IMG/VR virus record: IMGVR_UViG_2913177423_000007
Direction: 5' to 3' (one strand)
From: a virus
Taxonomy: Duplodnaviria; Heunggongvirae; Uroviricota; Caudoviricetes
DNA length: 4,940 bases
How positions within the stretch are numbered: the stretch's first letter is position 1; each line of letters starts with the position of its first letter. Positions 898-4,940 of the stretch are shown here, piece by piece. The translations under genes and the position numbers were made by a program. The notes under the pieces were generated by a model. The model was not told the DNA's origin. It was given only the letters and a program-made list of their open reading frames with translations, and searched no databases.

Positions 898-3273
898 ATG
901 GCAGTACAGATTTCAGGTGTGCTGAAAGATGGTGCGGGAAAACCAATACAGAACTGCACTATTCAACTGAAGGCAAAGCGTAACAGCACCACGGTACTGG
1001 TGAACACGGTGGCCTCTGAAAATCCTGATGAAGCCGGGCGTTACAGCATGGATGTTGAGTATGGCCAGTACAGCGTCACCCTGTTGGTTGAAGGTTTTCC
1101 GCCTTCACATGCCGGGACCATTACCGTCTATGAAGGTTCCAGACCAGGTACGCTGAATGATTTTCTCGGTGCCATGACGGAAGAGGATGTCATGCCGGAG
1201 GCATTGCGTCGTTTTGAGGAAATGGTGGAAGAAGCGGCACGCAACGCCGAAGCCGCCTCTCAGAGCGCAGCGGCGGCAAAGAAATCCGAAACTGCAGCGG
1301 CTTCATCGAAGAACGCGGCGAAAACCTCAGAAACGAATGCAGCTAACAGCGCACAGGCGGCAGCGTCCTCGCAGACTGCATCGGCAAACTCCGCGACAGC
1401 AGCCAAAAAATCAGAAACCAACGCGAAAAACAGCGAGACAGCCGCAAAGACGAGCGAAACCAACGCAAAGTCCAGCCAGACGGCAGCGAAAACCAGCGAA
1501 ACGAATGCCAAAGCCAGTGAAACTGCGGCGAAAAGCAGTCAGGATGCAGCAGCTGAAAGCGAGAGTGCGGCGGCCGGTTCTGCGACTTCAGCAGCCGGAT
1601 CAGCAACTGCTGCGGCTAACAGCCAGAAAGCTGCGAAGACGAGCGAAACTAACGCAAAGTCCAGCCAGACGGCAGCGAAGATCAGCGAAACGAATGCTAA
1701 AGCCAGTGAAACTGCGGCGAAAAGCAGTCAGGATGCAGCGGCCCAAAGCGAGAGTGCCGCAGCTGGTTCTGCAAGTGCGGCTGCTGCTTCTGCCACTGCA
1801 GCAGCCAACAGTCAAAAAGCAGCAAAAACCAGTGAAAACAACGCAAAGGCGAGCGAGACTGCGGCGGCTAACTCGGCGAAAGCATCCGCTGCAAGCCAGA
1901 CGGCTGCAAAAGCAAGTGAAGACGCAGCCAGAGAGTATGCAAGCCAGGCTGCGGAGCCGTATAAACAAGTTTTGCAGCCGCTTCCCGATGTGTGGATACC
2001 GTTTAACGATTCACTGGATATGCTTGCTGGCTTTTCGCCTGGTTATAAGCAAATAACTGTAGGTTATGATGTTATTAAAATGCCATCCGATAAGGTTGTT
2101 AGCTTCAAACGCGCATCAGGTGCAACATACATTAATAAATCAGGAGTATTAACCGTTGCTGAAGTTGACGAACCGCGATTTGAACGAGAAGGTTTGCTGA
2201 TTGAAGGACAAAGAACCAACTATCATCTTAATTCACTTACACCATCTAAGTGGGGAGCTACAACAAGTGTAACTATAACAGAAAGTGGTGTTGATGAGTT
2301 TGGCTTTACTTATGGGCGGTTTCAAATAAAGGACGAAAAAATTGGGACAAATACGACAATGAATATCGCTGCGGTTTCAGGAGGAAGAGGTGTCGATGTT
2401 ACTGGAACTGAAAAGTATGTTACAACATCATGTCGTGTAAAAAGCGATAGTGCTAATATACAATGTCGTATAAGATTTGAAAGATATGACGGGTCCGCAT
2501 ATTTTTATCTGGCAGATGCATATCTTAATATAACAGATATGTCCATTAGAAAAACGGGAGGAGGGGCTGCAAGAATAACCGCCCGAGCGGAGAAAGAATC
2601 TAATGGATGGATTTATTTCGAGGTTACATATCAATCTGAAGCTATTGATAATATGGTTGGCTCTCAGATCCAAATTGCTCCACCTGTTTCACCTGGAACT
2701 TATTTGGGCGGGGAATATTTGGATGTTACGACACCACAATTTGAAGGCGGCTCATGCGCATCATCTTTTATCATTTCCGATACAGTTGCATCAACGCGAG
2801 CAAGCGATATTGTTACATTGCCTTGCAAAAATAACATGACCAGCAAACCTTTAACCTGCATGGTTGAAGTGAATAAAAATTGGTCTATAGCACCAAATTC
2901 CGCGCCTAGAATTTATGATATAACAGGATTTAAAACAAAAGACGACGCTTTTGTTTTTGCATTCAGAAATACAGCAGGTAGTGTAGGAACTCCATATGTT
3001 CAATTTGGTAATCCAATATCATTTCCACCTGGAAATTACCCAAGAAAGATTATCGCTGTATATAGAATAAAAAGCGATGGCAAGTTTCAGGCTGGCTGCA
3101 ATGGGGTTTTATCAACACCAGCATCAACAACGTGGAAGAGTGTTAATGGTGCTACAGGTATAAGGATTGGAGGTCAGACTACAGCCGGCTTACGTCATTT
3201 ATTTGGTCATATCAGGAATTTTAGAATATGGCATAAAGAATTAACCGATGCGCAAATGGGAGAGGTAATATAA
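898..3273 (+). CDS. stf: Side tail fibre protein, 791 aa: lambda Stf-like N-terminal region, Ala/Ser/Thr/Lys-rich repetitive shaft, divergent AT-rich C-terminal distal region
   Basis: The N-terminus MAVQISGVLKDGAGKPIQNCTIQLKAKRNSTTV...GRYSMDVEYGQYSV...GFPPSHAGTITVYE...PGTLNDFL closely matches my recollection of lambda Stf (MAVKISGVLKDGTGKPVQNCTIQLKARRNSTT...). The following KTSETNA(K/R)SS repeats are also as in lambda Stf. ATG at 898 is preferred over the track's GTG at 892 because GGAG at 889-892 gives a 5-nt spacer. Stop is TAA at 3271-3273. Confidence 0.9.
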   Translation: MAVQISGVLKDGAGKPIQNCTIQLKAKRNSTTVLVNTVASENPDEAGRYSMDVEYGQYSVTLLVEGFPPSHAGTITVYEGSRPGTLNDFLGAMTEEDVMPEALRRFEEMVEEAARNAEAASQSAAAAKKSETAAASSKNAAKTSETNAANSAQAAASSQTASANSATAAKKSETNAKNSETAAKTSETNAKSSQTAAKTSETNAKASETAAKSSQDAAAESESAAAGSATSAAGSATAAANSQKAAKTSETNAKSSQTAAKISETNAKASETAAKSSQDAAAQSESAAAGSASAAAASATAAANSQKAAKTSENNAKASETAAANSAKASAASQTAAKASEDAAREYASQAAEPYKQVLQPLPDVWIPFNDSLDMLAGFSPGYKQITVGYDVIKMPSDKVVSFKRASGATYINKSGVLTVAEVDEPRFEREGLLIEGQRTNYHLNSLTPSKWGATTSVTITESGVDEFGFTYGRFQIKDEKIGTNTTMNIAAVSGGRGVDVTGTEKYVTTSCRVKSDSANIQCRIRFERYDGSAYFYLADAYLNITDMSIRKTGGGAARITARAEKESNGWIYFEVTYQSEAIDNMVGSQIQIAPPVSPGTYLGGEYLDVTTPQFEGGSCASSFIISDTVASTRASDIVTLPCKNNMTSKPLTCMVEVNKNWSIAPNSAPRIYDITGFKTKDDAFVFAFRNTAGSVGTPYVQFGNPISFPPGNYPRKIIAVYRIKSDGKFQAGCNGVLSTPASTTWKSVNGATGIRIGGQTTAGLRHLFGHIRNFRIWHKELTDAQMGEVI
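1260..1930 (+). repeat. Low-complexity coding repeat region (the Stf shaft) with roughly 7/14-residue periodicity
   Basis: Translation is dominated by reiterated motifs such as KTSETNAKSSQTAA, KTSETNAKASETAA and KSSQDAAAESESAA. The reverse strand stays open here only because of GCN-rich codons. Confidence 0.8.
1441..1818 (+). repeat. In-frame tandem duplication, 2 x 189 bp (63 codons each): copy 1 at 1441-1629, copy 2 at 1630-1818, with a degenerate partial third copy from 1819 to about 1866
   Basis: Direct alignment in the sequence: gccgcaaagacgagcgaaaccaacgcaaagtccagccagacggcagcgaa... at 1441 against gctgcgaagacgagcgaaactaacgcaaagtccagccagacggcagcgaa... at 1630. The first ~110 nt of each copy are near-identical. 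Differences are mostly synonymous third-position changes. Confidence 0.85.
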
Positions 3274-3554
3274 TGCGAGATTTAATTATCAAATTCACAG
3301 ACAAGGCCGACTTTTCGGCCTTTATGGATAGCATTGGTTATTATGATGACGAGATGATGCAGAACGATGTTCTCATTGATGTAATAGGTGACGTATACAA
3401 AGAAACAGGCGAACTTACTGAAGATGGCGAGCCGGTATGTGTTAAGGAAGACGGATATTTTGTAAACGTGCGCATCATTAATGATTCGCAAATATCGTCA
3501 TTATTCGATGAATACGCGGTTGCTGTTGAGCATCAACTTCGTGGCTGGATGTGA
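3273..3554 (+). CDS. Hypothetical small acidic protein, 93 aa, translationally coupled to stf; function unknown
   Basis: Its ATG at 3273-3275 overlaps the stf stop TAA at 3271-3273 (TAATG). GGGAGAGG at 3258-3265 is a Shine-Dalgarno sequence 7 nt upstream. The protein is Asp/Glu-rich with no predicted transmembrane segment. I recognise no family and see no resemblance to lambda Tfa. Confidence 0.6.
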   Translation: MRDLIIKFTDKADFSAFMDSIGYYDDEMMQNDVLIDVIGDVYKETGELTEDGEPVCVKEDGYFVNVRIINDSQISSLFDEYAVAVEHQLRGWM

Positions 3555-3563
3555 GGAAGAAAA

Positions 3564-4604
3564 ATGGCTACATCGACAGTAATTCCTGATGACATCAAAA
3601 CGCTAAAATCCGATGTTAGCAAATTAAAAAACGATCAAGGAAGCTACGTAACAAAATCATATGTAGACAGCAAAAATGAAACCGTTAATGACTGGTCTGC
3701 TGCATGGTATCAGCAGGTACTGCCAACTAGCGGAGCTATATTTGGGCGAAAACTTCGCTCAACTCACAGGACGGCAGGTGTTGAGGATGCGTATTGCGAA
3801 CTATACCTTAAAAAATGGATAGACAGCCCAGGGAACGCAATGGCGCGCCTTAACCTGAACGATAACGGTGAAAATATTTGCTGGGATTTTACCAACCTTT
3901 ACGGCGGAACAATGATCTTCCCTGGTACTTCAGGTTATCTGAAAATGGGGAACTGTCTCATGTCGTATGGTGTGCGGGGAAGTAACGCGCTTATTAAGTT
4001 TGATAATACAGACACATTACAAATCAAATACGCTAATCATGGGTCAACCATGACATTAAACACACAGGGAACCGCTCACGCTGGCGTAACAACTCGACTA
4101 TGGGGCAATTCTAGCCGTCCGGTTGTTTATGAAGTTGGCGTAGATGAGGCTCTGTATATGTTCTACGCACAGAAAACTACCAGCAATACCTACGAATTAA
4201 CGGTTAACGGCGCGTGCAATGCAAGTGCATTTAATCAAGGCTCTGACCGGGATCTGAAAGACAACATTCAGGTGATCGATAATGCAACTGACCGCATCCG
4301 TAAAATGAACGGCTATACATACACGCTTAAAGAAAACGGTATGCCCTATGCTGGTGTCATTGCACAGGAAGCTCTGGAAGCCATCCCCGAAGCCGTAGGG
4401 TCTATGATGAAATATCCAGACGGTGGGAGTGGATTAGATGGAGAAGAAGGTGAACGGTATTACACTGTAGATTATTCTGGTGTTACTGGCTTGCTTGTTC
4501 AGGTAGCCAGAGAGTCAGACGACAGAATAACAGCACTGGAAGAAGAAAACGCAGAATTAAGACAAAGGTTATCTGCAATTGAGGCGGCGCTTGCGTCTAA
4601 ATAA
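3564..4604 (+). CDS. Short tail fibre/tailspike-like protein, 346 aa, with a C-terminal peptidase S74-type intramolecular chaperone autoproteolytic domain
   Basis: ATG at 3564 has AGGA at 3554-3557 six nt upstream. The C-terminal region reads ...NQG-SDRDLKDNIQVIDNATDRIRKMNGYTYTLKENGMPYAGVIAQEALEAIPEAV...RITALEEENAELRQRLSAIEAALASK. This matches the S-D-x-R-L-K ... GxIAQEλ..λPEAV signature of the chaperone domain of phage K1F endosialidase and T5 L-shaped tail fibre, and ends in a coiled-coil-like tail. Stop is TAA at 4602-4604. Confidence 0.8.
   Translation: MATSTVIPDDIKTLKSDVSKLKNDQGSYVTKSYVDSKNETVNDWSAAWYQQVLPTSGAIFGRKLRSTHRTAGVEDAYCELYLKKWIDSPGNAMARLNLNDNGENICWDFTNLYGGTMIFPGTSGYLKMGNCLMSYGVRGSNALIKFDNTDTLQIKYANHGSTMTLNTQGTAHAGVTTRLWGNSSRPVVYEVGVDEALYMFYAQKTTSNTYELTVNGACNASAFNQGSDRDLKDNIQVIDNATDRIRKMNGYTYTLKENGMPYAGVIAQEALEAIPEAVGSMMKYPDGGSGLDGEEGERYYTVDYSGVTGLLVQVARESDDRITALEEENAELRQRLSAIEAALASK
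4242..4601 (+). other. Predicted S74 intramolecular chaperone domain (residues 227-346), with putative catalytic Ser227 (nt 4242-4244) and Lys232 (nt 4257-4259)
   Basis: SDRDLK is encoded by tct gac cgg gat ctg aaa at 4242-4259, with the Ser-to-Lys spacing of five residues recalled for the endosialidase dyad. The downstream GVIAQEALEAIPEAV block fits the family. Self-cleavage would leave a mature protein of about 226 residues. Confidence 0.65.
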
Positions 4605-4610
4605 TATTAA

Positions 4611-4633
4611 GGGGCCGAGCGCCCCGTTTTATT
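4611..4633 (+). terminator. Rho-independent terminator after the S74-domain fibre gene
   Basis: GGGGC (4611-4615) pairs with GCCCC (4621-4625) around a 5-nt loop CGAGC, followed by GTTTTATT (4626-4633). It starts 7 nt after the stop codon. Confidence 0.6.
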
Positions 4634-4646
4634 GGGTAGGATGAAA

Positions 4647-4940
4647 ATGGATATAACACCTTTCCTTCATGCGCTTTGTGCTGTGGCTGCGCAGCTACTG
4701 ATTGGTCTTTTTACCGGGAACTGGGCTTACGGAGCGATAGCCGGTTGTACGTTCTTCATTGCGCGTGAACACACCCAGGCAGAATATCGCTGGATTGAAA
4801 TGTTCGGGCATGGCAAGCGGATTAACATGCCGTGGTGGGGCGGTTTTGATCCACGCGCGTGGGATGTAGCAAGCCTGATGGATTTTTCTGTGCCGGTGGT
4901 GGCGTGTCTGCTGGTCTGGGTATTTATCCGTTCAACATAA
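4647..4940 (+). CDS. Small hydrophobic protein of about 97 aa, predicted integral membrane protein of unknown function; possible moron or accessory gene
   Basis: ATG at 4647 is preceded by AGGA at 4638-4641 with a 5-nt spacer. An in-frame ATG at 4641 is an alternative; the track's TTG start at 4632 lies inside the terminator T-tract and is unlikely. Hydrophobic stretches ITPFLHALCAVAAQLLIGLF, WAYGAIAGCTFFIA and FSVPVVACLLVWVFI suggest 2-3 transmembrane helices. Stop TAA is at 4938-4940, the last three bases of the window. GC is about 50-60%. Confidence 0.55.
   Translation: MDITPFLHALCAVAAQLLIGLFTGNWAYGAIAGCTFFIAREHTQAEYRWIEMFGHGKRINMPWWGGFDPRAWDVASLMDFSVPVVACLLVWVFIRST

Follow-up and report, generated by a model that had tools for sequence, protein, structure and literature searches.

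A predicted three-helix membrane-protein gene of PHROG 1443 is the conserved last member of the fibre block in a lambdoid late operon

The 4,940-nucleotide (nt) stretch of viral DNA analysed here (IMG/VR record IMGVR_UViG_2913177423_000007, Caudoviricetes; hereafter the window, at its full length) is the distal end of a lambdoid late operon, with all genes on the + strand. Its last feature is a 97-codon open reading frame (ORF) at 4647-4940, directly after the fibre genes. This locus raises the question of whether such a gene is a self-contained moron or a part of the fibre block that precedes it, and what its product might do. An earlier reading of the same DNA (the original prediction) had proposed a membrane-protein gene at a moron position, insulated by a terminator and acting in superinfection exclusion, receptor masking or another function of benefit to the host. 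The ORF is a conserved protein-coding gene of PHROG 1443 and belongs to the late fibre block as its conserved final gene, rather than being a self-contained moron.

The coding status of the ORF was assessed by comparison with its homologues. The protein matched the profile of PHROG 1443 ('unknown function') with an E value of 1.3e-57, residues 1-95 aligning with profile positions 1-95 of 97. Pairwise ratios of nonsynonymous to synonymous substitution rates (dN/dS) among lambdoid copies were 0.1-0.3, indicating purifying selection. The stop codon TAA (4938-4940) forms the final bases of the window, and three in-frame start candidates are present (TTG 4632, ATG 4641 and ATG 4647). ATG 4647 (MDITP) was taken as the start, because homologues begin M-D-(I/L)-(S/T)-P and phage 21 has AAGGAGG-N5-ATGGAT; in relatives, AAGGAGG lies at the position equivalent to AGGA 4637-4640 of the window. 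The homology search that had been suggested as a check identified PHROG 1443, with 566 homologue clusters at 90% identity by a word-indexed search and 436 at 50% identity by an exhaustive profile search. All 436 clusters are stand-alone proteins of about 58-146 residues, and fusion to a known domain, sought among these clusters, was ruled out. As the original prediction required, the ORF is conserved as a coding sequence in related genomes, and transmembrane helices are predicted in its product.

The gene is widely distributed. It was found in 1886 of 5426 complete Escherichia coli genomes; a carrier genome has it at 2 sites in the median case and at 7 at most, and it was annotated in every case as 'hypothetical protein'. 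At least 73 phage records contain it (Escherichia, Aeromonas, Halomonas, Cobetia and Salmonella), and the carriers are mostly temperate phages or prophages. Copies in lambdoid phages and prophages are 87-98% identical and occupy the same slot after the fibre genes. Known copies, such as CPT_21_24 of phage 21 ('putative membrane protein') and those labelled FIG00639861 by RAST, match over their full length and stand in the same position. The window copy departs from them chiefly in its last few codons (...FIRST compared with ...LLVNRG or ...LLIR), owing to a mosaic joint some 20 nt ahead of the stop. This joint falls within the 3' end of the gene, at about 4919-4940, and the DNA homology of most relatives ends about 20 nt before the stop; the C-termini vary, reading ...VFIRST in the window and ...LLVNRG, ...LLIR or ...MLIR elsewhere. 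Searches of Pfam, NCBIfam and PADLOC returned no match to the 97-residue protein, a profile search of PDB sequences gave 0 matches at E <= 10, BFVD held no relative at E < 0.8, and no specific fold match was found. A Pfam family reached through distant members was also rejected, the 47 members scanned giving scattered noise only. No paper on PHROG 1443 was found in the literature, including work on lambdoid morons, exclusion and intramolecular chaperones. Thus, the window copy adds one more member to a family that is catalogued and very common but wholly uncharacterised.

The relation of the gene to its neighbours is best seen from the order of features along the window.

1-837, + strand: C-terminus of the tail-tip protein J, with Phage_Tail_Tip and Ig_GpJ_C domains
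858-885, + strand: intrinsic terminator between J and stf, an 8-bp stem, then TTTTTTATTT; stem energy -15.1 kcal/mol
898-3273, + strand: side tail fibre (stf-like), N-terminal phage_tail_N domain (Pfam PF08400, E 6.6e-67)
3273-3554, + strand: 93-residue PHROG 1361 protein (phrog_1361, E 1.7e-43)
3564-4604, + strand: 346-residue short tail fibre with a C-terminal Peptidase_S74 domain (Pfam PF13884, E 3.4e-14; phrog_4563)
4611-4633, + strand: terminator-like hairpin and T-run, GGGGC/GCCCC with 5 GC pairs and a 5-nt loop, then GTTTTATT
4637-4640, + strand: likely ribosome-binding site AGGA, 6 nt before ATG 4647, read from the sequence
4647-4940, + strand: 97-codon ORF and TAA, predicted three-helix inner-membrane protein, PHROG 1443

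The fibre block opens with stf and closes with the 97-codon ORF. A terminator-like structure, a hairpin followed by a T-run at 4611-4633, does precede the ORF, as had been noted. The hairpin (GGGGC-CGAGC-GCCCC, 4611-4625) has a stem energy of -8.7 kcal/mol, and the element has, on sequence alone, the form of a weak intrinsic terminator, with a GC-rich stem-loop and then a U-run. Three terminator-like sites were found in 3200-4940, compared with 1.4 +/- 1.1 in shuffled sequences, and the local fold at 4611-4633 was not statistically exceptional (z = -0.85). In agreement with the original prediction, which had seen no clear promoter, scans for promoters of the sigma-70 type found none above chance upstream of the ORF in the window or in two relatives. 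The end of the T-run at 4633 is separated from ATG 4647 by 13 nt. Given this gap and the lack of a detected promoter, the gene would be transcribed only by read-through of the hairpin, that is, together with the late operon.

Examination of related loci showed that the hairpin travels with the fibre gene upstream of it. DNA homology to phage 21, mEp460 and others starts at 4638, directly past the hairpin. The hairpin was present in 35 of 80 related loci, always with the 346-residue fibre or its remnant, while about 40 of the 80 carry instead a 234-residue S74 fibre without a hairpin. In hairpin-less loci (those with the 234-residue variant, and phage 21), a Shine-Dalgarno sequence AAGGAGG lies in the 11-12-nt gap after the preceding stop; in phage 21 the order is a 92-residue PHROG 1361 gene, AAGGAGGAAATA and ATG, with no S74 fibre and no hairpin. 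Since homology starts after the hairpin and the hairpin occurs only with the 346-residue variant, it is cargo of the upstream S74 cassette. The terminator that follows J, with its hairpin at 858-877 followed by six Ts and ATTT, is stronger and lies within the same operon, and no promoter was found between it and stf. An internal hairpin therefore does not mark the end of the operon. Late transcription in lambdoid phages is Q-antiterminated and reads through such terminators. The proposals that a terminator closes the fibre operon and insulates the gene were thus not upheld: the hairpin is weak, is part of the upstream cassette and is missing in half of the relatives, a stronger terminator after J is already internal to the operon, and the gene is read only through the hairpin.

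These data bear directly on the classical view of the gene as a moron or lysogenic-conversion gene, in which the repressed prophage would express it for exclusion, receptor masking or the envelope fitness of the host. Several features favour this view. No further rightward gene separates the gene from variable cargo (sitABCD, a DNA invertase or a DinI-like gene) and the end of the prophage, temperate phages are over-represented among its carriers, E. coli has it in multiple copies, and membrane-protein morons abound in lambdoid phages (PMC6969025). However, no promoter was found and there is no space for one, a complete prophage has no terminator after the gene, and the hairpin that might have insulated it belongs to the upstream cassette and is absent from half of the relatives. 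The complete prophage is the closest one available (L086), in which no terminator was found 3' of the gene up to the convergent DinI-like gene. Homologues are also embedded in the tail operons of other phage types, and intact copies are present in the large phages PS1 (Aeromonas, about 237 kb) and Carin-5 (Cobetia, 155 kb), both probably virulent. With neither a promoter nor a terminator of its own found, and with homologues embedded in the tail clusters of other phages, the description of the locus as a moron position does not hold, and expression as a moron is unlikely.

Base composition was examined on both sides of the same argument. The GC content of the ORF (52%) is indeed above that of the adjacent fibre cassettes, as the original prediction had observed and as might be expected of a moron: the S74 fibre has 45%, the 93-residue gene 41% and the C-terminal half of stf 39%. 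However, it equals that of the phage backbone (J, 50%; N-terminal half of stf, 55%), which points the other way. The ORF matches the backbone in composition, and the AT-rich fibre cassettes (39-45%) are the compositional outliers. Lambda lacks the gene and has no room for one, and its stf/tfa module also differs; the gene thus appears to co-vary with the fibre module and not to insert on its own. The window had ended at the stop codon with any downstream partners out of sight, and these can now be described. In E. coli prophages the next gene is DinI-like and lies on the opposite strand, followed by host DNA, while in free phages variable opposite-strand cargo (sitABCD, DNA invertase) comes next. 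In phage 21 the sitABCD iron/manganese transporter operon lies directly downstream on the opposite strand (L002 5397-8846).

The predicted structure of the protein was consistent with an integral membrane protein. The original prediction had expected a small membrane protein with 2-3 helices after the fibre genes, and the AlphaFold2 model contains three, at residues 4-23, 26-53 and 74-96, with a mean predicted local distance difference test (pLDDT) score of 94 from a 31-sequence alignment. Hydropathy agrees, with peaks at residues 3-24 and 74-95 and a moderate stretch at about 26-39 (19-residue means of about 1.0-1.2). The TMHMM result of the annotators of phage 21 differs, giving two helices. 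In close relatives the segment AREHTQAEYRWI...FGxGKRxNMPWWGGFDxRxW is invariant, as are D2, H8, Q16, C34, D79, P83 and C87. Family-wide, E41 and W72 are invariant and H8, G29, R40, Q44, A45, E46 and P83 nearly so, and the near-invariant motif reads R40-E41-x-x-Q-A-E-Y-R-W-I ... G-x-R-x-N-M-P-W-W-G-G-F-D-x-R-x-W.

The orientation of the protein in the membrane was deduced from the distribution of charge. Across 333 homologues, the mean number of lysine and arginine residues was 0.37 in the N-terminal tail, 0.34 in the turn between helices 1 and 2, 4.83 in the loop 40-73 and 1.71 in the C-terminal tail. Given three spanning helices and the positive-inside rule, these counts therefore predict an N-in, C-out topology with the loop 40-73 in the cytoplasm. 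The conserved motif, together with H8 and D79, would then lie at the cytoplasmic face, and the part predicted to be exposed to the periplasm would amount to a 2-residue turn and a tail of 2-7 residues. So little predicted periplasmic exposure argues against receptor masking.

The same features were weighed against a role as a holin, an antiholin or another regulator of lysis timing. Class I holins such as lambda S and P2 Y resemble the window protein in their size of about 100 residues, their three hydrophobic helices and their late expression, and one distant member of the family gave a weak match to Phage_holin_8 (E 0.0036). The window protein differs from them in having no charged C-terminal tail, the chain ending 2-7 residues past helix 3, and in a conserved polar loop whose conservation is far above that of holins. 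The predicted N-in, C-out orientation is moreover opposite to that of lambda S. No Pfam holin match was significant, and the gene is not part of a lysis cassette: it was never seen beside an endolysin, and HP1-like prophages have their lysis genes (CHAP and M15 endolysins) elsewhere. On the C-terminal tail, the orientation and the gene context, a holin was rejected, and any role in lysis timing is very improbable.

The evidence on expression and topology was combined in a tentative mechanism, to which we assign a probability of about 0.3: the protein may be a late inner-membrane accessory that protects the producing cell at the envelope, most plausibly via superinfection exclusion. The gene, for which no promoter was found, would be co-transcribed with the late genes, in the window by antiterminated read-through of the weak hairpin, and in about half of the relatives it would be translated from a strong Shine-Dalgarno sequence 11-12 nt after the preceding gene. 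The protein would be made with the fibres in the infected or induced cell, with expression in the lysogen leaky if any. It would insert in the inner membrane, where its cytoplasm-facing or intramembrane surface may act on a conserved component of the host or the phage; this target would not be a specific outer-membrane receptor. The producing cell and the progeny would thereby be shielded at the envelope; intramembrane contacts that keep secondary DNA out would be the most plausible means, and the gene would be inherited together with the fibre cassettes. Consistent with a role of the exclusion type, the carriers are mostly temperate, the gene is multi-copy in E. coli, and it is decayed in the group of Escherichia phage HC6.

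Comparison with characterised envelope proteins of phages gave partial likenesses. Cor (phi80, N15 and HK022) and Llp (T5) are small envelope proteins encoded beside receptor-binding or fibre genes; both are outer-membrane lipoproteins that block one receptor, FhuA. The PHROG 1443 gene is like theirs in encoding a small envelope protein next to fibre genes. Unlike Cor and Llp, its product is a predicted polytopic protein of the inner membrane with scant periplasmic exposure, and it stays constant while the neighbouring fibres change; Pfam, PHROG and PADLOC searches detected no sequence similarity of Cor or Llp to the window protein. T4 Imm, HK97 gp15 and P22 SieA share with it the character of small phage-encoded inner-membrane proteins. 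The genes of gp15 and SieA lie within or beside late structural genes and are expressed from the prophage, gp15 by its own moron promoter. The window gene differs from these two in that no promoter was found for it and in the existence of cellular orthologues, and no homology to Imm, gp15 or SieA (the last described in PMC10883804) was detected.

Several observations weigh against exclusion. No sequence or fold similarity to characterised exclusion proteins was found in Pfam, NCBIfam, PADLOC, PDB sequences or BFVD, and the scant periplasmic exposure predicted for the protein would be awkward for blocking an incoming tail tip. A protein about 60% identical occurs across tail types (lambdoid, HP1/P2-like and P22-like), and such phages are not expected to share a route of DNA entry. 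Expression confined to the late phase would give the lysogen no immunity. Finally, intact stand-alone homologues are present in the chromosomes of Aeromonas and Sphingomonas in non-phage contexts, which points to a general cellular activity.

The chromosomal homologues support a further alternative, that phages captured a cellular membrane factor with a housekeeping role at the cytoplasmic face (for example, one that modulates an enzyme, protease or transporter) and use it to condition the envelope late in infection. In five Aeromonas loci from three species (L004, L013, L015, L016 and L018), a pirin-family ORF lies directly upstream in four, and the downstream ORF family is common to all five. 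In A. rivipollensis, the sole Aeromonas locus with called genes, only housekeeping neighbours were present; there the homologue faces three genes on the opposite strand in convergent orientation, one for a RIO1-like kinase and two for lipid A acyltransferases. Two complete Sphingomonas genomes carry the gene alone amid unrelated housekeeping genes, and a search from a sphingomonad-type seed (P0145) returned 763 homologue clusters. Other alphaproteobacteria have ligA, kdsA, cyclophilin or cytidine deaminase genes upstream, with no common theme. KdsA/KdsB-like ORFs were seen near the homologue in 3-4 alphaproteobacterial loci; a link to lipopolysaccharide and Kdo, as a KdoH1-like subunit, was dropped as chance, since the neighbours are unrelated in the two Sphingomonas genomes and in other loci.

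Capture of a cellular factor would account for the stand-alone copies, in conserved synteny in Aeromonas and beside housekeeping genes across Sphingomonadaceae, as well as for the breadth of the sphingomonad-type search. The near-invariant polar motif (R40, E41, Q44, E46, R58, W72, D79 and H8) is also unusual for a mere membrane plug. However, neither a conserved neighbour in cellular genomes nor a fold recognisable as catalytic was found, 97 residues is small for an enzyme, and the tight linkage to phage fibre modules would be left unexplained. Capture of a cellular factor is doubtful. The stand-alone chromosomal copies argue for a general membrane target and against one phage receptor.

The linkage to fibres was most pronounced for those that end in an S74 domain, a self-cleaving intramolecular chaperone ('chaperone of endosialidase'). 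A hidden Markov model built from six S74 domains placed the end of an S74 ORF within 100 nt 5' of the gene at 75 of 80 lambdoid loci. The 234-residue variant begins with MATSTVIP, as does the 346-residue fibre, and has its own S74 domain. The two S74 fibres alternate at one slot (window 3564-4604; L160 4286-4990), with different bodies and S74 variants, as if cassettes had been swapped between the conserved N-terminal adaptor on one side and the conserved membrane gene downstream on the other.

Beyond the lambdoids, a homologue of about 40-60% identity lies directly 3' of an S74 fibre in five settings. In HP1/P2-like prophages of Aeromonas media and Leclercia adecarboxylata, the start of the homologue abuts or overlaps the fibre stop, and three more late-block genes follow, one matching the HP1_ORF34 family. 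A Desulfovibrio prophage has the homologue after an S74 fibre, and in Cobetia phage Carin-5 it lies between tail-spike genes. In Escherichia phage HC6 and five similar records (L079 3965-4120), an unannotated 51-residue remnant (...ANIPWWGGFDWRAWDLPSLLD) follows an 859-residue S74 tail fibre. In these phages the gene seems to be in decay, and HC6 looks virulent by gene content. In phiHAP-1 the homologue comes after a tail-fibre assembly gene, abutting or overlapping the preceding stop. The homologues of the HP1-like prophages, phiHAP-1 and Carin-5 lie inside the tail cluster, with more tail genes after them.

These findings are compatible with a partnership with S74 fibres, in which the cytoplasmic loop would dock the S74 domain, or the fragment freed by cleavage, at the membrane and aid trimerisation or maturation, or else dispose of the fragment. 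The S74 ORF directly upstream in 75 of the 80 lambdoid loci, with two fibre variants, the same adjacency in the HP1-like Aeromonas and Leclercia prophages, the Desulfovibrio prophage, HC6 and Carin-5, the abutting or overlapping gene starts of the HP1-like prophages, and a conserved surface predicted to face the cytoplasm, where fibres fold, all fit such a partnership. However, most S74 fibres do without the gene. The subtype of S74 concerned occurs in no fewer than 519 phage records, many of them from large genomes (of rV5, T5 or T4 size), compared with at least 73 that have the small gene, and a universal S74 accessory was ruled out on these counts (at least 519 versus 73). Phage 21 retains an intact, constrained copy despite having no S74 fibre, as do its relatives, the Comamonas, phiHAP-1 and Pantoea copies follow non-S74 genes, and no fibre is near the chromosomal homologues. 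S74 domains are, in addition, self-sufficient chaperones. A partnership with S74 fibres is therefore rather improbable. Still less probable is its broadest form, in which PHROG 1443 would be an ancient three-helix family of bacteria and phages whose motif binds S74 domains, so that the inner membrane would be the site where fibres trimerise or are cleaved. In eukaryotic MYRF transcription factors an S74 domain is followed by a membrane anchor, and by analogy the binding of S74 by the small protein might be the split-gene counterpart of that arrangement.

The settings without an adjacent S74 fibre were varied. In Pantoea the homologue follows DUF4376 proteins, which are fibre chaperones (PMC7289586), and in Comamonas it follows a giant J and a 72-residue ORF. 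In the Comamonas testosteroni prophage (L005 7766-9521), the upstream J has 2520 residues and precedes the 72-residue ORF, and three same-strand ORFs without Pfam matches (125, 99 and 183 residues) lie downstream; members of this local gene set might be functional partners. Fibre or tail proteins are upstream of the homologue in Leclercia and Chelativorans, and in the jumbo Aeromonas phage PS1 it comes after a terminase-like protein. A position directly 3' of a fibre gene, often with translational coupling, is also typical of the chaperones lambda Tfa, T4 gp38 and DUF4376/V22 gp27 (PMC7289586). Unlike these soluble chaperones, the window protein is predicted to be integral to the membrane, and its gene follows that of a chaperone where one is present; no Tfa-, gp38- or DUF4376-type domain was found in it by Pfam, and three hydrophobic helices cover most of the chain.

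The remaining genes of the window were examined as the context of the fibre block. The ATG of the 93-residue PHROG 1361 gene overlaps the stf stop codon, and its product is 52% identical to CPT_21_23 of phage 21 and has no Pfam match. This gene always lies between stf and either the S74 fibre or the small membrane gene, and longer relatives of its product (171-188 residues, phrog_18574) are encoded ahead of the membrane gene in Pantoea and Comamonas. The 93-residue protein, itself uncharacterised, is probably a fibre accessory or chaperone. Within stf, positions 1395-1866 form an Ala/Ser/Thr/Glu-rich tandem array with a period of 189 nt (2.3 copies, 83% matches) and sub-periods of 42 and 21 nt, which is the source of the strong AT skew at 1200-1950 and likely represents a shaft region of variable length. 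The slot between J and stf holds lom in many relatives and no lom in the window, where the terminator at 858-885 is found.

Collectively, these data correct the annotation of the locus, which holds a gene of the late-operon fibre module and not an insulated moron, and they show that a hairpin within an antiterminated late operon is not to be taken as an operon boundary. The PHROG 1443 family is of more interest than the window copy, being broad, carrying an invariant motif and pairing repeatedly with self-cleaving fibres. About one-third of complete E. coli genomes harbour the gene, as do phages with several types of tail, but it lacks a name, a Pfam family and an assigned function. If the protein is a partner of S74 fibres, a membrane step would be added to fibre maturation. 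If it acts instead in exclusion or in conditioning of the envelope, it would affect competition among prophages and the phage therapy of lysogens.

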